Shown here in pieces: positions 5,223 to 17,847 of a stretch of 64,000 nucleotides of DNA (the stretch's first letter is position 1; every line of letters begins with the position of its first letter). The DNA is taken from positions 34,154 through 98,153 of the forward strand of contig CAZXPU010000002.1 of NCBI GenBank assembly GCA_964642905.1. Reading direction: 5' to 3'. The notes under the pieces are model-generated. The model searched no databases. It saw only the letters and a program-made list of their open reading frames with translations, and was not told the DNA's origin. A program made the translations under genes and the position numbers. This DNA comes from an uncultured Brevifollis sp. (lineage in GTDB: Bacteria > Verrucomicrobiota > Verrucomicrobiia > Verrucomicrobiales > Verrucomicrobiaceae).

Positions 5223-5408
5223 TCAGTCTGCCAGACCGAATGCCGTGCCCACCACCTCCCCGTCCGACTCCTCAAACAGGATGCGCATCGGCCGGCAGCA
5301 GACTTCGCAGTCATAATCAACGTCGCAGGGAACCTCGGTGAAGTGAGGCGCCGGCACCTCGAACTCCTGAAAGCAGGCGGGACAGGTCACTGGGGTCGTC
5401 TCCATCAT
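5223..5408 (-). CDS. CPXCG-motif cysteine-rich small protein (zinc-ribbon like)
   Basis: CPAC...DYDCEVCCRP pattern; ATGA overlap with the kinase stop. Confidence 0.8.
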   Translation of the reverse strand: MMETTPVTCPACFQEFEVPAPHFTEVPCDVDYDCEVCCRPMRILFEESDGEVVGTAFGLAD

Positions 5409-6817
5409 GCGGACATCTTGGCCAGCCTCCTCTTCCTGCGCTCCAGCACCTGCTTGGCCACGCGCACCAGGTCCTCGCTGTCATAGGGTTTCGGCAGCAC
5501 GTCCGCAAACCCATGGGCGCTTGGCTGGAGCATGGCCGGATCCGAGCGGTTGCCGCTGGAGACAATCGCGTCCACTTCGGGATCCACCTGCCGAAGCAGC
5601 TCCATGGCACGCGCACCCCCCATGCCCAGGGGGATCGTCAGGTCGATCAGCACGAGGTCAAAAGGCTGCCGCGCCATCATCGCCTCGCTGTAGGCCTTCA
5701 CCGTGTCGCTTCCGTCCGCCGTCTCGAGGACCTCATATCCTTCCCTCTTCAGCGTCCGCACCATCAGGTTGCGCAGCAACACATCGTCCTCCAGCAACAG
5801 CACGCGCCCGGCATACGGCTTGGCGGAAGACGCGGGACCCGTGGGCGACTTCATGGCGGACGTCGTTCCCGGCGCCGTCCCGGCTCCGAAAACCGCCGCC
5901 GGAGCGGGCGCGGGAGCCTGCGGAGGGGATGCCAGCGCGTCCAGCAGCTCGCCCTTCAACTCATCGGCCGACCTCTGCCGCTGGTTCCTGTCCGGCTTCA
6001 GGGCACGGGTGATGATCGCGTCCAGCCGGGCGTCACAGGACACCAGGGAGGACGGCGGATGCCAGGCCCCCCGGGGGATCTGGCCGGTCAGCATCTGGTA
6101 AAACATCACCCCCAGCGCATAGATGTCCGCCCGGTGGTCGATCTCCGACTTGGCGTCGTACTGCTCGGGAGCCGCATAATCCGGCGTGCCCATCGCCATG
6201 TTCGTCTGGGTCAGCATCGTCGCCTGGGGATCCACCCGCTTCGCCAGCCCGAAGTCGGCCACCTTGATGCGGCCGTCCTTGGAAAGCAGGATGTTCGCCG
6301 GCTTGATGTCACGATGCACGATGTCCTTGGAATGCGCATAGGACAGGGCGTCACAAACCTTCACCAGGACCTCGGTGGCACGCATCGGCGACAACGGCCC
6401 CGCACTGAGCGACTGATGCAGGTCGATGCCCTCGATGTACTCCATCACATAATACAGGTAGTCCCCGACGATCCCAAAGTCGTACACGCTGACGATGTTC
6501 GGATGGTTCATCTGGGCAAGCGACTGCGCCTCGCGCCGGAAACGCTGCCCGTAGGCATAGTCGGTGCCGTGCTGCCGATGCAGGATCTTGATCGCCACGG
6601 CGCGCTCCAGGTTCAGCTGCCTGCCCCGGTAAACCGCCCCCATGCCGCCCTGCCCGATCATCAGGTCAAACTGGTAGATCCCGCCCGGCATCATCTGCGT
6701 CAGCTCCTGCGGAGTCGGATAGGGCGTCGGCGTCGTCCAGCCGGCAACCCCGTCGGACACCGGCGTCACATGCGCAGGCGGCGTGGTTTTTTTGCCGAAG
6801 GAGAAGAGTCGTCTCAT
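5405..6817 (-). CDS. Hanks-type Ser/Thr protein kinase with C-terminal response-regulator receiver domain
   Basis: GQGGMGAVY, VAIK, HRDIKPAN, DFG, GTPDYAAPE; then REC: LLLEDD, LIDLTIP, VSSG, PKPY. Confidence 0.92.
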   Translation of the reverse strand: MRRLFSFGKKTTPPAHVTPVSDGVAGWTTPTPYPTPQELTQMMPGGIYQFDLMIGQGGMGAVYRGRQLNLERAVAIKILHRQHGTDYAYGQRFRREAQSLAQMNHPNIVSVYDFGIVGDYLYYVMEYIEGIDLHQSLSAGPLSPMRATEVLVKVCDALSYAHSKDIVHRDIKPANILLSKDGRIKVADFGLAKRVDPQATMLTQTNMAMGTPDYAAPEQYDAKSEIDHRADIYALGVMFYQMLTGQIPRGAWHPPSSLVSCDARLDAIITRALKPDRNQRQRSADELKGELLDALASPPQAPAPAPAAVFGAGTAPGTTSAMKSPTGPASSAKPYAGRVLLLEDDVLLRNLMVRTLKREGYEVLETADGSDTVKAYSEAMMARQPFDLVLIDLTIPLGMGGARAMELLRQVDPEVDAIVSSGNRSDPAMLQPSAHGFADVLPKPYDSEDLVRVAKQVLERRKRRLAKMSA

Positions 6818-6895: not shown

Positions 6896-8482
6896 TTACA
6901 TGGCCGCGTTCGCCGCGCCCGTCGTCGATGCCTGCTGCTCAAACAGCCCCGGCTTAGGCCTGCTCCTGCTGAACAAGGTCCGCAGTTCAGCCATGATCCA
7001 AAGCCGCACCCCCCAGCGCAGGAACATGAAGGCGCTGAAGTTGGGCGAGTAACTCTGGCCGAGCGTGAGGTCCATGCCCGTGTTCCAGGCCCCGTAGGTG
7101 CCTTTCGCCCAGCGCTTCTTCGCCATCGCCACCAGGCGTCGGTTGTAGAAGGTCATGAACTTCGCAAACAGATTGCCGGCCGGCCCGTCATAGGGCAGCC
7201 GAGTCCATTCATAATCCGGGCTGTCATAAACCAGCCGCACCGGCCCGACAAAGTAGGTGCCCAGGTCCATGATGAATGAAATGCGCACCAATTCCGCATC
7301 GCCCAGATAGTGATACTTGCCCTTGTAAAGGCTCTCAAACCAAAGCCGGTAGCTGCGCTTGTACGCACCTTTCAGGTAGGCCACCTCGCCCGACACGTCC
7401 TTGCCCATGACCGCCTTCTTGATCACGTCAGTCACGGCATAAACCGTGTGCCCGCAGTAGTCCAGACCCTGGCTGTAAAGCGGGTCGATGAACCCGGCCG
7501 CATCCCCCACCATCGCCCAGCGGTTGCCGGCCATCTGTTCGGAGTAATAGGGCAGCCCCTTGTAGTAAAAGGTGTCGCCCTCCACCGGCTCCGCCCCTTC
7601 AAACATCAGCCGCCCCACGGGATGCGTCATCAGATGAGCACGCAGCCTCTCGGTCAGGTTCGGCCCCTCGGGCAGGGTGAAGACGCTGCGATCCCAGACC
7701 ACCCCGACGCTGTAGTCGCCGTTGGCCAGCGGAATCAGCCAGACCCACCAGCCGCGCCCCATGAGGTGATTCGTGGCGCTGCTGCGGGAAGCCCGGACAT
7801 TCCGGCTCAGGCAGGGATGCATCTTGCGGCTCTTGTAGCTGTCGAGCGGATTGACGTTCCTGAAACGGCACCAGATGGAGGACGTCGGATGCTCCTCCCC
7901 AAGCGGGCGGTGAATCCCCAGCTTCTTCGCCAGAAACGCCGCCCTGCCCGTGGCGTCGATGACCCAGCGCGCCGTGAACGCCCGTGCCTCGCCTTCCTGC
8001 GTCGTCAGGCTCACCCGATGGTTTTCGTCACCGTCCGCCAGCACGACCTCGCGGATCGTCGCAGGCCGCAGCAGTTCCGCGCCCGCTTCCACCGCCAGGT
8101 CCAGCACATGCTGGTCCAGCAGCGCACGGTCGAGCTGGAAGGTCGGCAGCCGGCTTTGAAACTTCGGCCCCAGCTCCGTGCAGTCCTCCACCCGGTCCTC
8201 CGGACTGCCGCAGAACCACATCCGCAGCCCATGCTTCTGATAATGATGTGCGCTCAGGTACGGGTTCAGGTGCAGCACCCTCGTCAAAAAACAGCCGCCC
8301 ACCTCGGACGTGCTCTCGCCCACCTTCCGGTCAAACTCCCGCGACCTCTCCACCACCAGCACTTTCAGCTCCGGCAGGTCGCGCTTCAGCAAAAGCGCCG
8401 CCGCCGCCCCGCTGAACGCCCCGCCAAGAATGATCACATCGAAGTCGGCTTTGGAAGTGTTCTGGCTGGCGGTGGCGTGCAT
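6896..8482 (-). CDS. Flavin-dependent halogenase-like FAD oxidoreductase
   Basis: DVIILGGAFSG, KVGESTSE, QKHG (putative catalytic Lys), WVWLIP (WxWxIP), GDAAGFIDPLYSQG; start at ATG 8482 inside the 6896..9424 ORF. Confidence 0.8.
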   Translation of the reverse strand: MHATASQNTSKADFDVIILGGAFSGAAAALLLKRDLPELKVLVVERSREFDRKVGESTSEVGGCFLTRVLHLNPYLSAHHYQKHGLRMWFCGSPEDRVEDCTELGPKFQSRLPTFQLDRALLDQHVLDLAVEAGAELLRPATIREVVLADGDENHRVSLTTQEGEARAFTARWVIDATGRAAFLAKKLGIHRPLGEEHPTSSIWCRFRNVNPLDSYKSRKMHPCLSRNVRASRSSATNHLMGRGWWVWLIPLANGDYSVGVVWDRSVFTLPEGPNLTERLRAHLMTHPVGRLMFEGAEPVEGDTFYYKGLPYYSEQMAGNRWAMVGDAAGFIDPLYSQGLDYCGHTVYAVTDVIKKAVMGKDVSGEVAYLKGAYKRSYRLWFESLYKGKYHYLGDAELVRISFIMDLGTYFVGPVRLVYDSPDYEWTRLPYDGPAGNLFAKFMTFYNRRLVAMAKKRWAKGTYGAWNTGMDLTLGQSYSPNFSAFMFLRWGVRLWIMAELRTLFSRSRPKPGLFEQQASTTGAANAAM

Positions 8483-8533
8483 GTTTTGACTCGACTTGAA
8501 CTTGGACAGACAATACGGGCAGAAGGTCCGCCG

Positions 8534-9487
8534 ATGACGCCTGAAATAACCGCCAAAGACTCCATCCCGCAAGTTCCGCCACGGCGGAACACCGGCCTGC
8601 ATGGCGCCTTCTGGACCCGCTGCCTGCTGCGGTTCATGTGTTTTGTACCGACAAAATTGGCCCTCCTCCTCGTCCGGCCCGTCACCCTGGTCATCTACCT
8701 CCTCGCCCCCCCCCAGCGCCAGGCCATCCAGGCCAACCTCCGCGCTCTCCGCCCCGACTTCGGCCCGGTCGAACGCTGGTGGGCCGGCTACCGCGTCTTC
8801 CTCAACTTCGCCCTCACCTACCTCGACCGTCTCTGGTCCATGCACTTCGGCCGGGAAGTGACCTGGGATGTGCCCAACACCGAACGCTTCACCTGCCTGC
8901 GCGACCACCCCGGCGGCGTGCTGATCTTCACCATCCACAGCGGCAACTACGACATCGGCGCCAGCCTCTTCGCCCGCGAGTTCGGACGCCGCCTCCACAC
9001 CGTCCGCGCCCCCGAGCAAACCGAGGAGCTCCAGCGCCTCCGCGAAAAGGAACTGCGCCAGACCGAGCAGGAAAACCCCAGGCTGCGCGTGCACTACAAC
9101 TTCGGCGACAACCACCTCGGCCTCGAGCTCTGCCGCGTCCTCATGGAAGGCGATGCCGTCGCCGTCCAGGGCGACCGCGTGCTCTCCGCCGTCTCCCCCG
9201 TCGCCATGACCTGCGGCGGCCGTGTCTATCAGCTCCCACGCGGCCCGCTCGTGCTGGCGGAAATCTCCCGCGTGCCCTGCTACCCCATCTTCCTCGAACG
9301 CACCGGCTGCCTCCGCTACCGCATCCATGTCGGCGAATGCTTCCACGACGGCACCAACCGCCTGCGCAGCGATGACATCGGCAGGCTCTGGCTGCCTGTG
9401 ATGCATCAGCATCTCCAGGAGCACTGGGACCAGTGGTTCGTCTTCGAACCCCTGGTCAGCCTTCAGGAACCCGGCCCCTCAGCGTGA
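8534..9487 (+). CDS. LpxL/HtrB-like (lipid A lauroyl / lysophospholipid) acyltransferase
   Basis: HSGNYDIG (HxGNWE-like), AVQGDR, FGRGPL-like LPRGPLVLA, QWFVFEP C-terminal motif; start 8534 inside the 7310..9487 ORF. Confidence 0.8.
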   Translation: MTPEITAKDSIPQVPPRRNTGLHGAFWTRCLLRFMCFVPTKLALLLVRPVTLVIYLLAPPQRQAIQANLRALRPDFGPVERWWAGYRVFLNFALTYLDRLWSMHFGREVTWDVPNTERFTCLRDHPGGVLIFTIHSGNYDIGASLFAREFGRRLHTVRAPEQTEELQRLREKELRQTEQENPRLRVHYNFGDNHLGLELCRVLMEGDAVAVQGDRVLSAVSPVAMTCGGRVYQLPRGPLVLAEISRVPCYPIFLERTGCLRYRIHVGECFHDGTNRLRSDDIGRLWLPVMHQHLQEHWDQWFVFEPLVSLQEPGPSA

Positions 9488-10972
9488 CGCGGCCCCCGCC
9501 TTGCGCCTCGCCGCTTGTTTCGCCGAAGCCTCCTCCGCACCAAGCGCCAGCCCGTTGTCCAGCGGCATCGACTGATGCCAGGCCAGAAGCGCCCGCGTCA
9601 TCCGCTCGACGACCCCGGCATTCGCCGAAGCCATATTCTCCGCCTCACCGCGATCCTTGCTCAAATCATAGAGCTGCGGCTTCGTGCCGTCGTATTCACA
9701 GAGCAGCTTCCACGAACCCTCGCGCATCGCCAGGTCAGGCAGCCGCTCCGGCAGCGACGGAGAGGCCGTCTTCCGATCCGGCGGACGCCTCCAGAAAATC
9801 GGCGCCCTGCGCGAGGCCTCCGACTTGCCAAGCAGAACCGGCGCAAGATTTTCACCATCCAAAGCCGTCCCAGCCGCATCAACCCCAGCCACGGCCAGCA
9901 GCGAGGGCACCAGGTCAAACGCGGCAAAGACCGACTCCGTGTTGACGCCACCCGCCTTCGCCGGATCGATCAGGCCCGGCCCCCAGACGATCAACGGCGA
10001 CCGCGTGCCTCCTTCATAGAGCGTCGTCTTGGAGCCCCGGAACGGCCCCGCGCTGCCCGCCCCGGGCTCCGGGCCGTTGTCCGAGCAGATCAGCAGCAGC
10101 GTGTTGTCACGCAGCCCGGGCGTGGAGCGAAGGTGATCGAAAAGCCTTCCAAACTGGCGGTCCATCGCCTCCAGCACGGCCAGGTATTTGCCACGCTTGT
10201 CCTCCGCCCACTTCTCCACCGTCGGCCACCACGGACCATGCACGTCGTCCGGCCAGAGGTTGATGTAAAAAGGCCTGCCGGCCGCCGCCGCACGCTTCAT
10301 GAAAGGAATCGCCGCATTCACAAATCCCCCCGTGATCTCGCTGCGCTGCATCCACACCACCGGGCCGCCCAGGCGCTCCGCATCCTCCCAGATGCGACCG
10401 GGCTCCTTGTCGCCCGGCTTCCTCGTCATCGGCAGCAGCTTGGGCCCCATGCCCTCAAAGTTGGTCAGGCTCTCGTCGAAGCCGTAGGCGCTGATCGGCG
10501 GCGCGTCATCGACGTCACGCTGCCCGCCCAGGTGCCATTTGCCAAAGTGCCCCGTGGCATAACCGCCCTGCTTCAGCAGCCGTGCCAGCGTCGGCGCCTT
10601 CGGATCCAGCCACTGCGCCACGCCACGCCTCTCGTTCTGCGCCCGGTTGTCCAGATAGGAGCTGATCCGCCAGCGCTGCGGATACTGCCCCGTCGTCAAC
10701 GCGCAGCGTGAGGGCGAGCAGATGGGCGAGTTGACATGAAAGTCTTCAAACCGGATCCCCTCCGCCGCGATGCGGTCGATGTTCGGTGTCTTCGCGTCCT
10801 TGTTGCCAAAGCAGGAAAAATCCCCCCACCCCATGTCGTCGATGAAGACCATCACGATGTTGGGCTGCCCCTGCTTCGCCTGGGCCAGGCCAGCCGGCTC
10901 AACCACAGCAAACAGCAGCCCAAGCTCCAGCATGAGCGACAGCTTTTTCATCATGGGTTGGATCATGGTCAT
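9479..10972 (-). CDS. Cys-type sulfatase (arylsulfatase family), secreted
   Basis: PNIVMVFIDDMG, CSPSRCALTTG (CxPxR), GKWHLG, SDNG, LYEGGTRSP. Confidence 0.92.
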   Translation of the reverse strand: MTMIQPMMKKLSLMLELGLLFAVVEPAGLAQAKQGQPNIVMVFIDDMGWGDFSCFGNKDAKTPNIDRIAAEGIRFEDFHVNSPICSPSRCALTTGQYPQRWRISSYLDNRAQNERRGVAQWLDPKAPTLARLLKQGGYATGHFGKWHLGGQRDVDDAPPISAYGFDESLTNFEGMGPKLLPMTRKPGDKEPGRIWEDAERLGGPVVWMQRSEITGGFVNAAIPFMKRAAAAGRPFYINLWPDDVHGPWWPTVEKWAEDKRGKYLAVLEAMDRQFGRLFDHLRSTPGLRDNTLLLICSDNGPEPGAGSAGPFRGSKTTLYEGGTRSPLIVWGPGLIDPAKAGGVNTESVFAAFDLVPSLLAVAGVDAAGTALDGENLAPVLLGKSEASRRAPIFWRRPPDRKTASPSLPERLPDLAMREGSWKLLCEYDGTKPQLYDLSKDRGEAENMASANAGVVERMTRALLAWHQSMPLDNGLALGAEEASAKQAARRKAGAASR

Positions 10973-12351
10973 GGAGCAGCCTTTCCTTTCTTTTTGCCCA
11001 GAAGGCGGAATTCGTCCGTCAACAGCAGCGGCCTGCCCGACACAAGCTGCGCGTCATTCGTGCTTTTCATCCAGGTGTCCAATCCCTGCCGCAGTTCGGC
11101 AAGTGGGGCCGCATGAGCGGATTCGGCAGCCAGGTTGTTCAGTTCAAAGGGATCGGCATCCAGGTCGTACAGCTCCTCGGCCGGCCGCTCGCGGTAGCGC
11201 TTCACGAGAAACGCCGCGCGCGGGTCCGTCTGCGCGGCCTTCTCCCAGGAGGCGATGTAGGCGAGGCTGTCCTCATTCACGGCGCGGTCGATGTGCGAGG
11301 TGAAACGAAACTCGGGATGCAGGTTGCGAATGTACTTCCAGCGCTGCGTGCGCATCGAACGGCTCGGATACACGTTCATGTCATTGTCGCCGGTGTGCGT
11401 CGTGAAGATCGCCTCACGATGCCTGTCCGTCCTTCCCAGGAGCACCGGCAGGAAGGATCGGCCGTCCAGGTCCGCCGGAACATGGCCGCCGCCGGCCTCG
11501 ATGAGCGTGGGCAGGATGTCGATCCACTGCACCATGGCGCTTGATCGCACCCCCGCGGCCACCCTGCCCTGCCACTGCACGATCAACGGCACGCGCGTGC
11601 CTTCATCATAGAGGTTCCATTTGCCGAAAGGCAGCTGCGCCCCGTGGTCGCTGGTCTGCAGGAAGAAGGTGTTCCCCGTTCCCAGGCTCTGCCTCGCCGC
11701 CTCATAAACCGCCCCAATCTCCTCATCCATCTTCATCACTGCGTTGATGTAACGTGCGCGGTAATGCCGGAACTCGGGCGTGTCGATGTGCATCGGCTGA
11801 ACCCTCACCTTCGCCGGATCCACACCCTCCGGAGGCGGCAGCGGCACATGCGGCCAGTTCGTGCCAAAGAACAGTGCGAGCGGCTTGCCGCCCTTGCGCT
11901 GTTTCAAAAAGTCCACACAGGCCTGCACGCCGGCATGGTCGTGGTAGCCGTAGTTCTCCGCACGATCAAAGCCCTGCTCGGTGACATGCGCATAATGGCT
12001 CGTCTTGCCGAAGCTCACCGTCTCATAACCAAGCTCCTTCAAATAAGCCGGCAGTCGCTTCAGCCCGGCATGAGGCTTCGCATGGTTCGGCTCCGCCCCG
12101 TTCCTGGCCGGGTAAAGGCCGGTGAAAAGCGCCGCCCGGCTCGGCGCGCAGCTCGGCGAGTTCACAAACGCACGCTCAAACACCAGGCCCGCCGAGGCCA
12201 GGCGGTCGAGGTTCGGCGTCGGGATGTCCGCCGCGCCATAAACGCTCATGTCCGTGGCGCTGTGATCGTCCGCCAGCAGCACGACCAGATGGGGCGGCGC
12301 GGCGGCAAGCGGCGCGACCAGCAGGGTCAGGATCAACCAGGAATGCTTCAT
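10969..12351 (-). CDS. Cys-type sulfatase, secreted
   Basis: PHLVVLLADDH, SCAPSRAALFTG, SDHG, GKWNLYDEGTRVP; start 12351 gives an ATGA overlap with the upstream sulfatase. Confidence 0.92.
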   Translation of the reverse strand: MKHSWLILTLLVAPLAAAPPHLVVLLADDHSATDMSVYGAADIPTPNLDRLASAGLVFERAFVNSPSCAPSRAALFTGLYPARNGAEPNHAKPHAGLKRLPAYLKELGYETVSFGKTSHYAHVTEQGFDRAENYGYHDHAGVQACVDFLKQRKGGKPLALFFGTNWPHVPLPPPEGVDPAKVRVQPMHIDTPEFRHYRARYINAVMKMDEEIGAVYEAARQSLGTGNTFFLQTSDHGAQLPFGKWNLYDEGTRVPLIVQWQGRVAAGVRSSAMVQWIDILPTLIEAGGGHVPADLDGRSFLPVLLGRTDRHREAIFTTHTGDNDMNVYPSRSMRTQRWKYIRNLHPEFRFTSHIDRAVNEDSLAYIASWEKAAQTDPRAAFLVKRYRERPAEELYDLDADPFELNNLAAESAHAAPLAELRQGLDTWMKSTNDAQLVSGRPLLLTDEFRLLGKKKGKAAP

Positions 12352-13805
12352 GGATTCAGCCGATATTCCCGCATCCACCAGGCCAGCCGCTCCGCGTCGG
12401 ACGGCTCCGGCTTCCTCAGGCGTTTTTGCCAGACTTTTTGATAGGTCTTCCGCTTGTCCTCCTGGATCTCCGCCAGCGGCGGCTCGGTCGCGGGATCCCC
12501 GGCCGCCCCCCGGTCATGCGTGGCCTGGATCCATGCGCCCAGCCTGCCAAGCAGGGCTTCCACACGCGGCTTCTGCGCCGGGTCTGAAGCAAGGTTGCGC
12601 AGGCCCTGCGGGTCCAGCTTCAGGTCGAAAAACTCCACCTCCGGCCGTGTCGGCGCCAGCCAGGAGGCCTGGAAGCTGTCGAGTTCACCACGGACTTGCA
12701 GCACCCTCATCAGGGGCATTCCCGGATACTGCTCCTCCTTGTAGCTGGACCAGTTCAACCGTGACAGCTGCGGGTTGAAATGCCTCACCAGCCAGGCGTC
12801 CTCCGTGATGACGGCGCGGATGCGGTCCATCGCATCACCGCAGCGGTCACGCGCCGCGAACAAACAATCACGCACAGGAAACTCCCCCGTCAGAACGTCA
12901 CGGCCCTCCATCCAGCCCGGCACGGCCTGCCCCGCCACGGCCAGCATGGAAGGCGCGAGATCGATCAGGCTCACCAGCCTCCGCTCCACGCCGCCCCGGC
13001 CCACGCCCGGCCCGCGCATCAGCAGCGGCACCTGCAGGCCCTCGACGCTCAGCCACTGCTTCCCCCACGGCATGGCACGGCCGTGATCGGCGAAAAATAC
13101 AACCAGCGTCTCCTCCAGCACCCCCTCCGCCTCCAACTGCGCCAGGATCGCGCCCACGCGGCCGTCCACCACCTCGACGCTGCGCTGATACGCATGCCAG
13201 TCGCGCCGCATCAGCGGATGATCCGGATAGTTCGGCGGCAGTTCGATGGCCTTGAGCGCCTCTTCATCAAAGGACTCCGGCACCGGAAACGGCCGATGGG
13301 GCTCGCTGATCTGATACTGCGCAAAAAAAGGCTGGCCGGGCGCGCGCCGCCGCCAGTCGTCGCCGTCGAAAAGCGTCCTGGCATCGTGGGCAAAATTGTA
13401 ATGCGTCTTGCCCTTCGTGATCCTTTTACCGGAGCGAATGGTGTCCGGCGCCGGGGCGTTGGTGACGAAATAACCGGCCTGCCTCAACAGGGTCGGCAGC
13501 GGCACATAGGGCGCCGGCAGGGGTTGCGGGTTCTCCGTGTCATGCGGATGCAGGCCGGTGGTGGTCTGGTGGCAGCCGAGAATGAAGGCGGAACGTGACG
13601 AACTGCACACCGGCGCCGTGGCATAAGCCCGGGTGAAACGCCTGCCCTCGGCGGCCAGGCGGTCCAGGTTTGGCGTCCGCACCCCCTTTGCCCCCAGAGC
13701 CGCGACGTCCGGAGACATGTCATCCGCAATGATCCAGACCAAGTTAGGCCTTGCCGCCAGGAGAACCGGGCAGAGGAGAAAAAACAGGACGAGCAGACAC
13801 CGCAT
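12348..13805 (-). CDS. Cys-type sulfatase, secreted (CSSSR variant)
   Basis: RPNLVWIIADDM, VCSSSRSAFILG, ADHG, GKQWLSVEGLQVP; signal peptide from ATG 13805. Confidence 0.88.
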   Translation of the reverse strand: MRCLLVLFFLLCPVLLAARPNLVWIIADDMSPDVAALGAKGVRTPNLDRLAAEGRRFTRAYATAPVCSSSRSAFILGCHQTTTGLHPHDTENPQPLPAPYVPLPTLLRQAGYFVTNAPAPDTIRSGKRITKGKTHYNFAHDARTLFDGDDWRRRAPGQPFFAQYQISEPHRPFPVPESFDEEALKAIELPPNYPDHPLMRRDWHAYQRSVEVVDGRVGAILAQLEAEGVLEETLVVFFADHGRAMPWGKQWLSVEGLQVPLLMRGPGVGRGGVERRLVSLIDLAPSMLAVAGQAVPGWMEGRDVLTGEFPVRDCLFAARDRCGDAMDRIRAVITEDAWLVRHFNPQLSRLNWSSYKEEQYPGMPLMRVLQVRGELDSFQASWLAPTRPEVEFFDLKLDPQGLRNLASDPAQKPRVEALLGRLGAWIQATHDRGAAGDPATEPPLAEIQEDKRKTYQKVWQKRLRKPEPSDAERLAWWMREYRLNP

Positions 13806-13963
13806 CCCGGTCATAACGTGAGGGCCGTGCCTGCATTTCAAGCCGAAGGCACCTCAGCCTATCCTGGATGCACGATGCCGCCACCATCTCCACGACTCCG
13901 GGCTGGCCCGCTCTCTGCTGCAACAAAGGTGCCGGCTTTCCCGTTAACCAGCAGTTACCCCCC

Positions 13964-15235
13964 ATGAATCGTCGTCATTTCCTCCTCAGCTCCCTCGGCA
14001 CCACCCTGGCCCTGCCGGGCATGTCCTCACTCATGGCCAAGTCCGCAGGCGGCAGCTCCGCCGTCCGCGCCGCCAAGGGAGCAGGCATCGGAGCCCGCCG
14101 CTTCGTCGCCATCGGCAACCTGCTCGGCTATCAGACCAAGAGCCTTTTCCCGACCACCCAGGGCCGCAGCTACGAGAAGACCGCGCTGCTCGAGCCGGTG
14201 TGGGACGTACGTGACAAGATGACGGTGTTTCGCGGCCTCGACCACGGTGTGAAAGGCGGCCACTTTGCGGTTCATTCGTTCCTTTCCGGCGTGCTCCATT
14301 CCGAGGCCCAGAACCGCCCCGAGGGCAATGTCACCATCGACCAGTTCCTCGCCGACGAGGTGGGCTTCGAGACACGCTTCCCCTCCCTCACCGTCGGCTC
14401 CGAAGGCGGCATCCACGGCGGATGCCAGATCGCCTGGACGAAGTCCGGCGTGCGCGTGCCCCCCGTCACCAACCCGGCCGAGTTGTTTGAAAAATTGTTC
14501 GTCTCCGACTCCCCGGAACGCCGCCTTCGCCGCGTCCAGGACAACAAGGTCCAGGCCTCCATCCTCGACTCCGTCCTTGAGGAGGCCAACCGTCTCTCCA
14601 GGCAGGTCAACAAGGAGGACAAGGACAAGCTCGACGAATATCTGACCTCCGTCCGCGACGTCGAAAAACGCCTCGAACTCCGCCAGCGCTGGACCGACCA
14701 GCCCAAGCCCAAGGCCCCCTTCGACAAGCCCGCCAACCGCAACGCCGTCGAGGACCTGCCCCTGCTCTACGAACTGATCGCCCTCGCGCTCCAGACCGAC
14801 TCCACCCGCATCGCCACGCTTGAAATCGGCGGCGATTTCATGCCCCAGCACCTCGGCATCAAGAAGGACTGGCACGGCCTCTCCCACCACGGCAACGACC
14901 CCGAGGCCATCGCCAGCCTCATCACCCTGGAGAAGTACCAGGTCGAGCATTTCGGCAAGTTCGTCGCCCGCCTTTCCAGGATCAACGACGGCGAGCGCAG
15001 CCTGCTCGACTCCACCACCGTCCTGTTCGGCAGCGGCATGGGCGACGGCAACTCCCACAAGAACTCCGACCTGCCCATCCTGCTGGCCGGCGGCGGCTAC
15101 AAGCACGGCGAGTTCCGCGAGGTGCCGCGCGAAGGCATCAACAAGGTGCCGCTCTGCAACCTCTTCGTCGACATCGCCCAGAAGATGGGCGTGGAAACGG
15201 ATTCGTTCGGCAGCAGCACGGGACGCTTTGCGTAA
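13964..15235 (+). CDS. DUF1552 domain protein, Tat-exported
   Basis: MNRRHFLL twin-Arg signal; HGGHF-like GGHFAVHSFLSG, TIDQFLA, ALQTDSTRIATL, HGLSHH, SGMGDGNSH...DLPILLAGG. Confidence 0.88.
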   Translation: MNRRHFLLSSLGTTLALPGMSSLMAKSAGGSSAVRAAKGAGIGARRFVAIGNLLGYQTKSLFPTTQGRSYEKTALLEPVWDVRDKMTVFRGLDHGVKGGHFAVHSFLSGVLHSEAQNRPEGNVTIDQFLADEVGFETRFPSLTVGSEGGIHGGCQIAWTKSGVRVPPVTNPAELFEKLFVSDSPERRLRRVQDNKVQASILDSVLEEANRLSRQVNKEDKDKLDEYLTSVRDVEKRLELRQRWTDQPKPKAPFDKPANRNAVEDLPLLYELIALALQTDSTRIATLEIGGDFMPQHLGIKKDWHGLSHHGNDPEAIASLITLEKYQVEHFGKFVARLSRINDGERSLLDSTTVLFGSGMGDGNSHKNSDLPILLAGGGYKHGEFREVPREGINKVPLCNLFVDIAQKMGVETDSFGSSTGRFA

Positions 15236-15265
15236 AACTGCGCGACTTTGCGAGCCCATGGCAAC

Positions 15266-15294
15266 ACGGTCATCTTGCACCGCAGGATGATGCC
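15266..15294 (+). repeat. Degenerate REP copy (family A)
   Basis: ACGG TC ATCTTGC ACC GCAGGAT GATGCC resembles GTAA CC ATCTTGC CCC GCAAGAT GAGCCG at 55460. Confidence 0.45.
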
Positions 15295-15330
15295 AGCGTT
15301 CCCGCCAACCCTTCACGTTTCTCCAGTTCG

Positions 15331-17847
15331 ATGACGCATTCCCCTTTGCAGGCCCCTCGCTCTTTTCACCGCACGCGAGGACTGCTTGGCCTCGCCCTTG
15401 CCACCGCCTCCCTGGCCTCCGCCGCCGATGCCCCGCCCAAGGTCGTGCAGCAGTTCCTGGGCAAGTACTGCCTGGAATGCCATGACGCCGACGTCCAGAA
15501 GGGCGACCGCGCCTTCCATGAGTTCACCCTGCCGCTGAAGTCGGTGAACGAGCTCATCGAGGCCCGTGACATCATCGACCAGCTCACGCTCAAGGAGATG
15601 CCGCCGAAAAAGGCGGACCAGCCTTCCGATGACGAACGTCTCGCCATGATTCGTGCGCTGCGCGACGGCACCGTCGCGGCCTACGGCAAGTTCCAGAGCA
15701 CCGGCAGCCGCACTGTCATGCGCCGGCTCTCCAGCCGTGAGTATGAAAGCACCCTCGCCACCCTGTTTGGACGCCGGGTGGACACGCTCGGTCTCACGGC
15801 CGACTTTCCCAAGGAGAAAACCGCCGAGCACATCGACACCATCGGCAAGTCCCTGGTGACCTCCGGCTTCCTCGTCGACCAGTACTTCCAGGCCGCCAAC
15901 CGTCTCGTCGAAGCCCGCCTCGGCAAGCCCGCCATGGACCCCAAGGACTGGCGCTTCAACGGTCACTTCGTGCAGTACGAGGAGCTGCAGGGCTCGCACA
16001 AAAGCGCCTTCAACTACCGCTATCTCAACATCTACGAACAGCCGAACACCGACACCCGCCAGGGCGGCTACGGCCACATCGAGGACTTCAAGCAGGGCGT
16101 TCCCGTCTCCGGCCTCTACGACCTCGAGGTCGAGGCGACGGCCATGCATCGCGACACGCACTACGACCCCGCCATCTTCGGCATCGACTTCTCCGAACCC
16201 TTCATCCTCGGCATCGTGCCCGGCGACGTCACCAAGGGGCACATCCACTACCCCCAGGCCATCGAGCCCCTGCTCGCCAGCACCGTCGTCCCCGACAAGG
16301 AGCCGAAGTGGTTCAAGTTCCGCATCTGGCTCGAGGCAGGTCAGACACCCCGGTTCATCTTCCCCAACGGCCCCTATGAATCCCGCGCCTCGGTGCTCGC
16401 CATCAACAGACGCTACAAGGACGAGTTCAAGGCCGATGTCGGCTCCTCCGGCGTCGGCCGCGCCCACATCCTTCTGGAAGGCAAGCTGCCCCACATCCGC
16501 ATCAGCGAGATCAAGATCCACGGCCCCGTGCCGGAAAATCCCGGCAGTGCCGAGGAGGTGGCCGTGTTCGGCAAAGACGGCTTTCAGGAGGCGCGCGCCC
16601 TCGACCAGCTCTTCGCCTTCGCGGAAAAGGCCTACCGCCGTCCGCTCACCGACGCCGACCGCCAGCCCATCCGCGCCCTGCATGAAAAACGCCTCGCCGA
16701 AAAGGCCTCGCCCCGCCAGGCGGCCCTCGATGCCCTGAAACTCATTCTTTGCTCGCCCAGCTTCCTCTACCTCAGCGAAATCACCGACGAGCCGGAGAAG
16801 GCGCTCAAGCCCCACGACCTCGCCTCCCGCCTCTCCTACGCCCTCTGGACCGCTCCGCCCGATGACGAACTGCTCGCCGCCGCCAGGTCCGGCCGCCTCA
16901 CGCAGTCCGCCGAGCTGAAGAAACAGATCCTTCGCATGCTCGCCGACGACCGCATCAAGGGCTTCATCCACGGCTTCCTCGACAGCTGGCTGAACCTTCG
17001 CGATCTCGGCTCGCAGCCGCCGCCGCGCGAGGTGGTCCGCTTCTACTACGCCGAGGACCTGCCCGCCTCGATGAAGGATGAGGCGCGTCTTTTCTTCCGC
17101 GACCTGCTGAAGAACAACGGCTCCGTCGCCCAGTTCATCGATGCTCAACACACCTTCGTGGACAAGAAGCTCGCGAAACTCTACGAACTGCCCGAACAAA
17201 AAACACTGCGTCTGGCCGACGGTTTCCAGAAGGTCAGCCTCCAGGGCGGCAGCCACCGCGGCGGGCTGCTCGGCATGGCCGCCGTGCTCACCGTCAGCGC
17301 CAACGGCGTCGAAACCTCGCCCGTCACCCGCGGCGTCTGGGTCACGGAAAACATCCTCGGCATCCCGCCGCCCCCGCCGCCGGATGTCGTGCCCGCCATC
17401 GATCCCGACGTCAGCGGCGCCACCACCATCCGTGACCGACTCGCCAAGCATCGCGCCGACGCCGCCTGCGCCGAATGCCATCGCAAGATCGACCCCCTCG
17501 GCTTCAGCCTGGAGACCTTCGACCCCGTCGGACGCTGGCGCAGCAGCTATCCCAGGCCCAAGAACAGCAAGGCCCCGGCCCCGAAGATCGACACCACCGG
17601 CGAGTTCCCCTCCGGCGAGACCTACACCGACTTCGCCAGCTTCAAAAAGGTCATCCACGACACCCGGGAGGATCACTTCACACGCCACCTCATCCGCCAG
17701 GTCCTCAGCTACTCCACCGGCCGTCTCATGGAGCTCAACGATGACCTGGTCATCGACGACCTCCAGGTCAACGTGAAGAAGCAGGGCCTAGGCCTGCACA
17801 CGCTCATGGTCGAATGCCTGATGAGCGAGATCTTCCGGTCGCGGTGA
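15331..17847 (+). CDS. DUF1592-type protein (Planctomycete cytochrome c plus DUF1587/1595/1592/1588/1585 domains)
   Basis: Heme motifs CLECH (N-term) and CAECH; RRLSSREY, LILCSPSFLY, LASRLSYALW, RGGLLGMAAVL, TSPVTRGVWV, IDPLGFSLETFD. Confidence 0.88.
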   Translation: MTHSPLQAPRSFHRTRGLLGLALATASLASAADAPPKVVQQFLGKYCLECHDADVQKGDRAFHEFTLPLKSVNELIEARDIIDQLTLKEMPPKKADQPSDDERLAMIRALRDGTVAAYGKFQSTGSRTVMRRLSSREYESTLATLFGRRVDTLGLTADFPKEKTAEHIDTIGKSLVTSGFLVDQYFQAANRLVEARLGKPAMDPKDWRFNGHFVQYEELQGSHKSAFNYRYLNIYEQPNTDTRQGGYGHIEDFKQGVPVSGLYDLEVEATAMHRDTHYDPAIFGIDFSEPFILGIVPGDVTKGHIHYPQAIEPLLASTVVPDKEPKWFKFRIWLEAGQTPRFIFPNGPYESRASVLAINRRYKDEFKADVGSSGVGRAHILLEGKLPHIRISEIKIHGPVPENPGSAEEVAVFGKDGFQEARALDQLFAFAEKAYRRPLTDADRQPIRALHEKRLAEKASPRQAALDALKLILCSPSFLYLSEITDEPEKALKPHDLASRLSYALWTAPPDDELLAAARSGRLTQSAELKKQILRMLADDRIKGFIHGFLDSWLNLRDLGSQPPPREVVRFYYAEDLPASMKDEARLFFRDLLKNNGSVAQFIDAQHTFVDKKLAKLYELPEQKTLRLADGFQKVSLQGGSHRGGLLGMAAVLTVSANGVETSPVTRGVWVTENILGIPPPPPPDVVPAIDPDVSGATTIRDRLAKHRADAACAECHRKIDPLGFSLETFDPVGRWRSSYPRPKNSKAPAPKIDTTGEFPSGETYTDFASFKKVIHDTREDHFTRHLIRQVLSYSTGRLMELNDDLVIDDLQVNVKKQGLGLHTLMVECLMSEIFRSR

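Follow-up and report, generated by a model that had tools for sequence, protein, structure and literature searches.

A divergent halogenase-like and acyltransferase gene pair as the probable residual core of a scattered aryl-polyene-type lipid pathway in a Prosthecobacter-like member of Verrucomicrobiaceae

Why would a flavin-dependent-halogenase-like gene (hal) stand head-to-head with a gene for a membrane-anchored acyltransferase (AT), and with which pathway would the two proteins work? The window (the whole 64-kb stretch of DNA that was analysed) contains no KS, ACP or MMPL homolog by homolog search, as the sequence-only reading of the locus had reported; that reading described an orphan pair related to aryl-polyene and xanthomonadin clusters, with precursors encoded elsewhere. 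Aryl-polyene (APE) clusters are considered the bacterial biosynthetic cluster family with the broadest distribution. To our knowledge, their halogenases are uncharacterised and their lipid-anchoring steps only partly so. The evidence from protein families, predicted folds and gene neighbourhoods points to a probable answer: hal and AT would form the core for tailoring and anchoring in an APE/xanthomonadin-type lipid pathway, which is scattered over the chromosome in this Prosthecobacter-like lineage.

The divergent gene pair and its neighbours

The hal and AT genes are separated by 51 bp, and the gene limits (Table 1) bear out the head-to-head arrangement that had been proposed. GC contents at codon positions 1/2/3 are 0.61/0.45/0.84 in hal and 0.69/0.44/0.87 in AT. 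An 842-aa minus-strand open reading frame, which reaches upstream of hal to position 9424, was rejected because the codon-position GC in this extension (0.84/0.45/0.69) and the starts of the homologs disagree with it. Both genes have intact reading frames and are under purifying selection, with dN/dS values against three relatives of 0.08–0.09 for hal and 0.14–0.17 for AT.

Three sulfatases flank the pair on one side; on the other stand the kinase-receiver gene and two more genes, one unknown and one for an ABC-2 transporter. No dedicated flavin reductase was seen adjoining hal. The suggestion that hal is linked to the downstream kinase gains no support from conservation, because the loci in which the kinase comes directly downstream of hal number only 10 among 80 and all belong to close relatives; an eleventh locus (L026) carries it approximately 4.4 kb further on. 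The hal-kinase link is lineage-specific. The sequence is present in DNA metagenome runs from bioreactor, wastewater and freshwater, and in no RNA run.

Table 1. Coordinates of the gene pair, its motifs and the related genes of the same genome. Unprefixed positions refer to the window; C numbers denote other contigs of the assembly.
Feature	Position	Strand	Remarks
hal, flavin-dependent-halogenase-like, 528 aa	6896..8482	-	Rossmann/FAD domain and C-terminal helical extension
FAD-binding GxGxxG motif GGAFSG, residues 20–25	8408..8425	-	G20 and G21 invariant
KVGESTSE in hal	8303-8326	-	read from sequence
Lys83, candidate chloramine-forming lysine	8234..8236	-	context KHGLRMWF; invariant in 61 homologs
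WxWxIP motif WVWLIP, residues 246–251	7730..7747	-	W246, W248, I250 and P251 invariant in 61 homologs
Second FAD motif GDAAGFIDPLYSQG (GDAAxFxDPxxSxG), residues 326–339	7466..7507	-	
Divergent intergenic region hal/AT, 51 bp	8483..8533		
Sigma-70-like site TTGACT-17-GACAAT	8486-8514		putative, consensus match only; oriented towards AT
AT, membrane-anchored LpxL/PatA-type (LPLAT) acyltransferase, 317 aa	8534..9487	+	
N-terminal hydrophobic membrane-anchor-like segment, residues 35–60	8636..8713	+	Kyte-Doolittle windows >=1.6; helical in model
HX4D catalytic motif HSGNYD, H135-D140	8936..8953	+	
Kinase-receiver gene	5405-6817	-	78 bp from hal
ApeH-like adenylating enzyme (AMP-ligase)	C25:10271-11554		
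KS-CLF	C25:11549-13870		fused as one 773-aa protein
ACP, dedicated	C35:38595-38849		
Ketoreductase (KR)	C35:38880-39620		
FabZ-like dehydratase (DH)	C12:58213-58653		
PlsC-type acyltransferase	C12:57341-58141		
Methyltransferase (MT)	C6:66751-67422		
Second halogenase-like protein	C6:65404-66678		
GT2	C6:67419-68192		
CE4 deacetylase	C6:51012-51905		
MMPL transporter	C15:1212-3677		

Families, motifs and predicted folds

The hal protein passes the Pfam threshold of PF04820 (Trp_halogenase; 48.8 bits, cut-off 21) and carries every halogenase signature that had been listed for the minus-strand gene: GxGxxG, KVGESTSE, K83, WxWxIP and GDAAxFxDPxxSxG. The core residues of GxGxxG and GDAAxFxDPxxSxG are invariant across 61 homologs. 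The WxWxIP motif shields the substrate from the flavin and tells halogenases from monooxygenases of the same fold. Lys83 occurs in a KxG context that resembles PltA and CtcP and is aligned to their lysines in profile alignments. In the alignment with CmlS, K83 falls one residue before the second lysine of a KK pair, and H84 stands opposite that lysine; we take the reference catalytic lysine to be K79 in PrnA/RebH and K71 in CmlS. In a PDB profile search with hal, halogenases alone were retrieved down to an E of 1e-16 (CtcP 6e-32, CmlS 2e-29, PltA 5e-26), and geranylgeranyl reductases appeared at E ~1e-5, compared with 1e-32 for halogenases. A Foldseek search with the AF2 model of hal (pLDDT 91.3) returned flavin-dependent halogenases at all ranks from 1 to 45 (PltM: TMq 0.70, TMt 0.74) and geranylgeranyl reductase and KMO from rank 46 on. 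By both searches, hal groups with the halogenases and not with the geranylgeranyl reductases, an alternative that the sequence-only reading had kept in view.

Together with the phenol/pyrrole-type halogenases PltM, CtcP, CmlS, PltA, Bmp2 and CndH, hal shares the fold (TM 0.57–0.71), GxGxxG, WxWxIP, a conserved lysine and GDAAxFxDP. Compared with the solved enzymes of this type, hal exhibits clear differences: its identity to them is 18–23%, it scores below all curated equivalog cut-offs, and its C-terminal domain, a helical extension of ~150 aa at residues ~380–505, is specific to the family. Moreover, the partner of hal is a membrane acyltransferase, whereas theirs is an NRPS/PKS carrier-protein system. 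Database relatives of hal number 2,461 at E <= 1e-3, and the best 120 homologs of the homolog search are all verrucomicrobial. The verrucomicrobial subfamily to which hal belongs is distinct and well conserved.

The assignment of AT to the LpxL family, which had also been made from the sequence, holds through its homologs and its fold. AT itself has no Pfam match, is missed by PF03279 (Lip_A_acyltrans) when the genome is searched in all six frames and finds only weak NCBIfam matches (PIM acyltransferase, 3e-5). Its orthologs do pass PF03279 (L066: 37.2 bits, cut-off 22.3), and most of 120 AT homologs have a precomputed PF03279 assignment; AT is therefore a divergent PF03279 member by homology and not by direct score. 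H135 and D140 of the HX4D motif do not vary among 57 homologs, and in a set of 74 their conservation is at least 97%. The PDB sequence search with the 57-sequence AT profile gave no match even at E <=1. A Foldseek search with the AF2 model (pLDDT 88.4) gave only LpxM (TM 0.66) and PatA (TMt 0.74–0.78) at E <1e-3. AT shares the fold (TM 0.61–0.78), HX4D and an N-terminal membrane anchor with LpxM of A. baumannii and with PatA, the PIM acyltransferase of M. smegmatis, and it is likened to them as enzymes that acylate a glycolipid; it differs from both in its low identity (14–17%).

Elsewhere, the genome encodes two canonical LpxL proteins, which score 151 and 138 bits with PF03279. In hhalign comparisons, the AT family aligns to the LpxL-like family of APE clusters with a Prob of 97.5% and an E of 6e-12 over 275 columns, and to the genome's own canonical LpxL with an E of 3e-7 over 133 columns; of the two, the APE-cluster family is the closer. 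None of the 121 family genomes has an LpxL-like protein of the APE-cluster type, and the control genomes do yield matches. AT-type proteins thus seem to fill the LpxL-like slot of the cluster, and AT is the predicted counterpart of the ApeD-like enzyme.

Cluster context in relatives and scattered parts in this genome

The pair is syntenic in relatives, as the sequence-only reading would lead one to expect: AT is divergently adjacent to hal in all 77 Verrucomicrobiaceae loci with enough flanking sequence. In ~35–40 relatives, the pair runs on into CLF, KS, AMP-ligase, methyltransferase and CE4 deacetylase genes. Across 99 hal loci, AT is found in 81, CE4 in 60, MT in 42, AMP-ligase in 37 and KS-CLF in 35. 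The fullest loci (L097, L098, L099 and L072) additionally hold ACPs, KR, DH, a PlsC-type acyltransferase, GT2 and an MMPL transporter, and a contiguous cluster (locus L066, with CLF, KS, AMP-ligase, MT, CE4, AT and hal) is present in the cultured relative Prosthecobacter fluviatilis KACC 12649. A DUF4412 neighbour occurs at some Verrucomicrobiaceae loci. In the tree, from which the mistranslated row own_C13 is to be disregarded, clade A, which contains the window hal, is sister to clade B, whose halogenases come from other Verrucomicrobiae families and head ACP-KS-ACP-CLF-LpxL-like-PlsC-GT2-LolA-MMPL clusters. This relationship substantiates the proposed connection to aryl-polyene/xanthomonadin-type clusters. 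LolA_3 and MMPL are both present in the clusters of those other families, and no LolA homolog was found in Verrucomicrobiaceae by tblastn. For the clade-B halogenases that stand alone (L085, L087, L090 and L095), the idea of a hidden acyltransferase next to the gene was rejected, with hhalign probabilities <1%.

A hal-family homolog is carried by 92 of 121 Verrucomicrobiaceae genomes, ~79 of them with a member of the window hal's own clade. Only one of the 121 genomes (G306) has hal without KS. Conversely, KS is kept in ~14 family genomes that lack hal, and hal is therefore accessory and not essential. GT2 is absent from many genomes that retain hal, AT and KS.

In this genome, homologs of nearly every cluster part, the LolA-like chaperone excepted, were found as open frames, although no single cluster exists: the parts are spread over six contigs, which are C2 (hal-AT), C25, C6, C35, C12 and C15 (Table 1). 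The APE-type core set, which consists of KS and CLF, ACP, KR, DH and the adenylating loader, is complete at C25, C35 and C12. KS, AMP-ligase, MT, CE4, KR, ACP and DH show 54–68% identity and the expected Pfam domains; the CLF part, PlsC and MMPL also have the expected domains, with identities of 29–49% (MMPL, 29%). The pair can be called an orphan by its position in the window. It is not a free-standing two-gene system, as the contiguous clusters of relatives make plain, and the precursor genes do lie elsewhere, as had been supposed. On these comparisons, hal-AT appears to be a residual core, the last remaining adjacency of a cluster whose genes are contiguous in relatives.

The proposed pathway and its alternatives

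The most likely role of the pair is halogenating and membrane-anchoring an aryl-polyene-like acyl chain; we infer the substrates, the order of the steps and the halogenation itself. The ApeH-like adenylating enzyme would load a starter acid, probably hydroxybenzoate, onto the dedicated ACP. The fused KS-CLF would elongate the chain, and the ketoreductase and the FabZ-like dehydratase would finish each round. The methyltransferase and hal, and possibly the second halogenase-like protein, would decorate the head group; for this, hal would use FADH2, O2 and either chloride or bromide and act through Lys83 and a tunnel lined by WxWxIP. AT would then take the completed acyl chain from ACP and transfer it to an anchor in the membrane, either a glycolipid or a lysophospholipid; GT2, the CE4 deacetylase and the PlsC-type acyltransferase may make this anchor ready. 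The MMPL transporter may export the product.

A more specific variant, to which we attach a rather low probability, places hal late in the pathway and at the membrane. In this case, hal would be an obligate partner of AT that acts on a lipid-linked or AT-bound aryl chain and not on a free or ACP-bound starter. It would then be a flavin-dependent halogenase directed at lipids, and its C-terminal helical domain would serve as a docking module. Such a role is hinted at because the hal-AT adjacency outlasts every stage of cluster break-up, while the clade B halogenase adjoins ACP and KS.

The halogenating activity itself invites an alternative, in which hal, though of the same superfamily, would hydroxylate, oxidise or reduce an aryl head, a quinone, an isoprenoid or a lipid chain, with AT still an anchor enzyme of the APE type. 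The best NCBIfam scores of hal are divided among the QhpG monooxygenase (96 bits, cut-off 240), CmlS (90 bits, cut-off 900) and the superfamily of geranylgeranyl reductases (75 bits), none of these scores coming close to its cut-off, and the one-residue shift of K83 against CmlS and the lack of an adjoining dedicated flavin reductase are in line with such an enzyme. A distant hal homolog (L082) is translationally coupled to ubiE-menF-menD by a 4-bp overlap, which also fits. The invariant WxWxIP, the invariant K83 in its PltA/CtcP-like context, the unbroken run of halogenases at the head of the structural matches and the wide gap in PDB profile E values between halogenases and geranylgeranyl reductases argue the other way, and we regard a non-halogenating hal as unlikely.

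Less plausible still, and in our estimate very unlikely, is a role for the pair in modifying lipid A or some other envelope glycolipid of the housekeeping kind, independently of any polyketide-like chain. AT would then catalyse a late acylation of lipid A, and an acyl chain or a sugar would be the target of the flavoenzyme. The fold of AT matches LpxM, a lipid A secondary acyltransferase; the wide distribution of the hal family in Verrucomicrobiaceae is reminiscent of a core envelope function; and GT2, an ArnT-like GT39 and the CE4 deacetylase elsewhere in the genome resemble the sets for amino-sugar modification of lipid A. However, the genome already has its two canonical LpxL genes, AT by its profile resembles the enzyme of APE clusters more closely, the pair shares one block with KS, CLF and AMP-ligase in 35–40 relatives, and hal almost never occurs without the cluster KS. 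That the pair is a decaying, functionless remnant of a broken-up cluster is hardly credible. The cluster is indeed fragmented in this sublineage, and AT has drifted under the PF03279 threshold, but the intact frames, the low dN/dS, the invariant catalytic motifs and the survival of nearly all other pathway parts with their expected domains speak against decay. The reading of hal and AT as the core for tailoring and anchoring in an APE-type pathway is preferred.

The APE clusters known from E. coli CFT073 and from Xenorhabdus doucetiae (ApeA-R; especially ApeD, ApeH, ApeO/ApeC, ApeE/F, ApeJ and ApeM) have in common with the verrucomicrobial system an adenylating enzyme, KS and CLF, dedicated ACPs, KR, a FabZ/FabA-like DH, a methyltransferase, an LpxL-like acyltransferase and a second one, a transferase of GT2 type and, as a candidate in this genome, an exporter of the MMPL/RND kind. 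ApeD, a lysophospholipid acyltransferase, is the LpxL-like enzyme of APE lipids, and GalNAc and the polyene are attached by ApeJ (bioRxiv 10.1101/2020.12.19.423268; PMC8253772). AT holds the position of the LpxL-like enzyme of verrucomicrobial APE-type clusters. Compared with the APE clusters, the parts in this genome are split over at least six loci, KS and CLF are fused, and the LolA/LolB-like pair is not found in Verrucomicrobiaceae. The verrucomicrobial system also has a CE4 deacetylase and either one halogenase or two, none of which the E. coli cluster carries. In xanthomonadin clusters, a halogenase and a dolichyl-phosphate-mannose-synthase-like GT2 lie beside an unusual KS-CLF pair (PMC3691225). 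The clusters for xanthomonadin (a brominated aryl polyene of Xanthomonas) and flexirubin (Bacteroidota) resemble the present system by gene content, with a halogenase and GT2 beside KS-CLF, and they lead to halogenated aryl polyenes that are attached to membrane lipid. In contrast to these systems, the verrucomicrobial hal has its long C-terminal helical extension and forms its own clade. As far as we know, the Xanthomonas halogenase is biochemically uncharacterised.

The literature held nothing usable on Prosthecobacter pigments or on flexirubin reactions, and on aryl polyene halogenases in Verrucomicrobia it offered generic genome-mining papers only. The verrucomicrobial hal subfamily provides a biochemically testable target. 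If halogenated envelope lipids are confirmed in freshwater and wastewater Prosthecobacter, they would represent an added organohalogen source in those habitats. Cluster-based genome-mining tools would miss the pathway in genomes of this kind, since the assembly has its parts on six different contigs. The natural series of ever more fragmented clusters distinguishes the indispensable link, which is that between the halogenase and the acyltransferase, from the dispensable ones.

The divergent gene pair and its surroundings

The window corresponds to C2:34154-98153 of an assembly that comprises 5.6 Mb in 252 contigs, and the closest relatives of the window proteins are found in Prosthecobacter and other Verrucomicrobiaceae. 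The flavin-dependent-halogenase-like gene (hal) and the LpxL/PatA-type acyltransferase gene (AT) diverge from a 51-bp intergenic gap. A longer mechanical minus-strand ORF, reaching up to 9424, was rejected as an antisense artefact of the GC-rich AT gene because the codon-position GC differs upstream of hal (0.84/0.45/0.69) and within it (0.61/0.45/0.84). In a sample of 80 genome loci with hal relatives at 55–95% identity, AT divergently adjoins hal in all 77 loci with upstream DNA; the pair is therefore syntenic in relatives. A sigma-70-like site facing AT is predicted at 8486–8514. The hal-AT link is strictly retained while the other genes disperse, which suggests that the two genes are co-regulated from their common 51-bp region; physical or kinetic coupling is also possible. 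The proposed co-transcription of hal with the downstream kinase stands only in part: no terminator-like site was found in the 78-bp gap, so read-through is possible in the window, but the kinase directly follows hal in only 10 of the 80 loci, all from close relatives (in an eleventh, L026, it lies ~4.4 kb further on).

The other neighbouring genes are unrelated to the pair: three sulfatases and DUF1552/DUF1592-type genes occupy one flank, and on the other an ABC-2 transporter and an unknown gene join the kinase-receiver gene. The sulfatase genes are in tandem (9479–13841, minus strand) and are followed by a DUF1552 (HXXSHH) and DUF1592/1588/1595-type pair (13868–17847, plus strand), a combination typical of Planctomycetes-Verrucomicrobia genomes. 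As the sequence-only reading had held, a homolog search of the 64-kb window found no ketosynthase (KS), ACP or MMPL gene.

Genes of the pair and candidate pathway parts in the same genome (C-numbers, contigs outside the window)
Feature	Coordinates	Strand	Length	Likeness or position
hal	window 8482 to 6896	-	528 aa	
AT	window 8534-9487	+	317 aa	
Ser/Thr-kinase-receiver gene	window 5405-6817			downstream of hal, 78-bp gap
AMP-ligase	C25:10271-11554			55% identity to cluster gene
KS-CLF, fused	C25:11549-13870		773 aa	68% / 49% identity to cluster gene
Methyltransferase	C6:66751-67422			62% identity to cluster gene
CE4 deacetylase	C6:51012-51905			54% identity to cluster gene
GT2	C6:67419-68192			53% identity to GT2 of distant clusters
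Second halogenase-like gene	C6:65404-66678			CmlS model score 219 bits
Ketoreductase	C35:38880-39620			62% identity to cluster gene
ACP	C35:38595-38849			58% identity to cluster gene
Dehydratase	C12:58213-58653			54% identity to cluster gene
PlsC-type acyltransferase	C12:57341-58141			37% identity to cluster gene
MMPL	C15:1212-3677			29% identity to cluster gene

Families and folds of the two proteins

Hal matches Pfam Trp_halogenase (48.8 bits, cut-off 21) and reaches none of the curated NCBIfam equivalogs (QhpG 96/240, CmlS 90/900); it scores 75 against the geranylgeranyl-reductase superfamily (cut-off 159). As a single sequence it retrieves exclusively halogenases from the PDB down to E 1e-8. 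A 10-sequence profile retrieves CtcP (6e-32), CmlS (2e-29) and PltA (5e-26), with reductases only near 1e-5. The best 45 structural matches of an AlphaFold model built from a 61-sequence alignment (mean pLDDT 91.3) are flavin-dependent halogenases without exception, ahead of geranylgeranyl reductase and kynurenine monooxygenase. The top match, PltM (TM 0.70–0.74), spans ~525 columns and therefore also covers the C-terminal helical domain. The predicted grouping with halogenases is thus upheld. Every motif listed earlier was also located where it had been placed, and GGAFSG, WxWxIP, GDAAGFxDP and Lys83 are invariant across 61 homologs (identity down to 48%). In the alignments with CtcP and PltA, Lys83 matches their lysine (KxG context); in that with CmlS, the second Lys of KK lies opposite His84, one residue after Lys83.

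The window AT is below the Pfam thresholds; PF03279 is present in most of its best 120 homologs, and the P. fluviatilis ortholog scores 37 bits (cut-off 22). The HX4D catalytic motif (His135, Asp140) is invariant, and residues 35–60 form a hydrophobic helix. The model (pLDDT 88.4) significantly matches only two glycolipid-acylating enzymes, LpxM and PatA. In profile-profile comparison, the AT family is nearer to the LpxL-like family of aryl-polyene (APE) clusters (Prob 97.5%, E 6e-12, 275 columns); its match to the two canonical LpxL proteins of the genome is poorer (E 3e-7, 133 columns). The cluster-type protein is absent from all 121 genomes of the family and was found in control genomes; the window-type AT therefore replaces it in Verrucomicrobiaceae.

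Clusters in relatives and dispersed parts

The pair, supposed to be an orphan, is one by position only. When the N-terminal half of the C25 KS was searched against the 121 family genomes, that KS was placed 4–6 kb from hal in dozens of them. The KS and its partner CLF, an AMP-ligase, a methyltransferase and a CE4 deacetylase are contiguous with AT-hal (<-CLF <-KS / AMP-ligase-> methyltransferase-> / <-CE4 <-AT / hal->) in ~35–40 loci, one of which comes from the isolate P. fluviatilis KACC 12649. In the fullest loci (L097, L098, L099, L072) there are also two ACPs, a ketoreductase and a FabZ-like dehydratase, along with a PlsC-type acyltransferase, a GT2, an MMPL protein and an LPG-synthase-TM-like membrane protein. 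Among 99 loci with hal, AT occurs in 81, CE4 in 60, the methyltransferase in 42, the AMP-ligase in 37, KS-CLF in 35, and PlsC and GT2 in 15 each. The series reads as a stepwise break-up from the full cluster through KS block plus pair and CE4-AT/hal to AT/hal alone, the last stage, in the window's own sublineage. In L097 (G409:C6; 11770–13465), tblastn recovers AT as two separate segments and, of CE4, just the C-terminal part, which suggests frameshifts or assembly errors in this MAG.

The precursor genes expected elsewhere were located: the genome encodes homologs of nearly every part, with the expected domains, outside the window, the LolA-like chaperone excepted. KS-CLF (L104:2549-4870) is a single frame here and in the closest relatives (open frames 775–990 aa), and KS and CLF are separate, overlapping genes in the 58–64% clade; a short stretch of N occurs within the C25 frame. 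The ACP and ketoreductase genes have as direct neighbours (C35:36720-38592; L100:720-2592) those for a patatin-like phospholipase and for an LPG-synthase-TM-like (flippase-like) membrane protein, the latter also present within the full L097 cluster. On C6 (63623-68192; L103:13623-18192), an ArnT-like GT39 membrane glycosyltransferase faces a block made up of the methyltransferase, the GT2 and the second halogenase-like gene; the CE4 deacetylase is 12 kb off, and together these genes recall polyprenyl-phosphate-amino-sugar modification sets. Two more PF04820-positive genes in unrelated contexts (C13:33298-34344, minus; C9:57769-58716, plus) bring the halogenase-like genes to four.

Across a sample of the phylum, strong hal homologs (38–48% identity) were found in several further families of the class, often adjoining a second, shorter halogenase-like gene (hal2). 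In 10 of 16 such regions, the homolog heads a cluster ordered [hal2] - hal - ACP - KS - ACP - CLF - Ketoacyl-synt_2-like - LpxL-like (HVGHSD) - PlsC-type acyltransferase - GT2 - LolA-like - MMPL. This parts list is that of APE clusters, in which the LpxL-like enzyme is the lysophospholipid acyltransferase ApeD, and ApeJ is responsible for attaching GalNAc and polyene (bioRxiv 10.1101/2020.12.19.423268; PMC8253772); xanthomonadin clusters carry a halogenase and GT2 beside KS-CLF (PMC3691225). The suggested recurrence of LpxL-like enzymes in such clusters is evident in these ten. In a maximum-likelihood tree, the long halogenases form one group (support 99/100) apart from hal2 and other paralogs. 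Within this group, clade A (97/92), which comprises the window enzyme, those of Verrucomicrobiaceae and L081, is sister to clade B (97/97), to which the cluster-embedded enzymes belong. A clade-B halogenase (38–43% identity), either as an addition or as the only type, occurs in about 22 of the 121 family genomes (e.g. G123, L085:6696-8297; G309, G346, G365); these stand-alone genes have no KS cluster and no detectable acyltransferase neighbour. In L082 (G005:C7:46300-66200), a 46%-identical homolog overlaps by 4 bp a ubiE/menG-type methyltransferase gene, followed by MenF-like isochorismate synthase and MenD-like genes (9205–14553), which is a menaquinone context, neither an acyltransferase nor a KS context.

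Proposed pathway and alternatives

The earlier observation is confirmed and its interpretation largely right but incomplete: the pair is most likely a member of a dispersed APE-type lipid pathway, whose product is predicted from the gene content. The adenylating enzyme would load a starter acid onto a dedicated ACP, and KS-CLF, ketoreductase and dehydratase would build an unsaturated chain. The methyltransferase and halogenase(s) may decorate a probably phenolic head; the acyltransferase would then pass the chain on to an anchor, either glycolipid or lysophospholipid, prepared by GT2, CE4 deacetylase and PlsC-type enzyme, before product export. What the data show is the adjacency of the pair, the families and folds of its proteins and the list of parts, whereas substrates and the order of steps are inferred.

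That hal is instead a non-halogenating monooxygenase or reductase is improbable, although weak equivalog scores, a catalytic-lysine register ambiguous by one residue and the translational coupling of a distant homolog to ubiE-menF-menD keep some weight on it. The KS context and the presence of two canonical LpxL genes make a role confined to lipid A unlikely. The intact motifs and the dN/dS values against three relatives (hal 0.08–0.09, AT 0.14–0.17) contradict a decaying remnant; both genes are under purifying selection. Within the APE-type pathway, hal fits an accessory tailoring enzyme, as hal without KS occurs in one of 121 family genomes (G306) and KS without hal in ~14 (counts not corrected for phylogeny). 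In the contiguous clusters, the CLF gene has a conserved neighbour that encodes a secreted DUF4412 protein (L066:1324-1974, L037:1368-2012), a possible substitute for the missing LolA-like chaperone.
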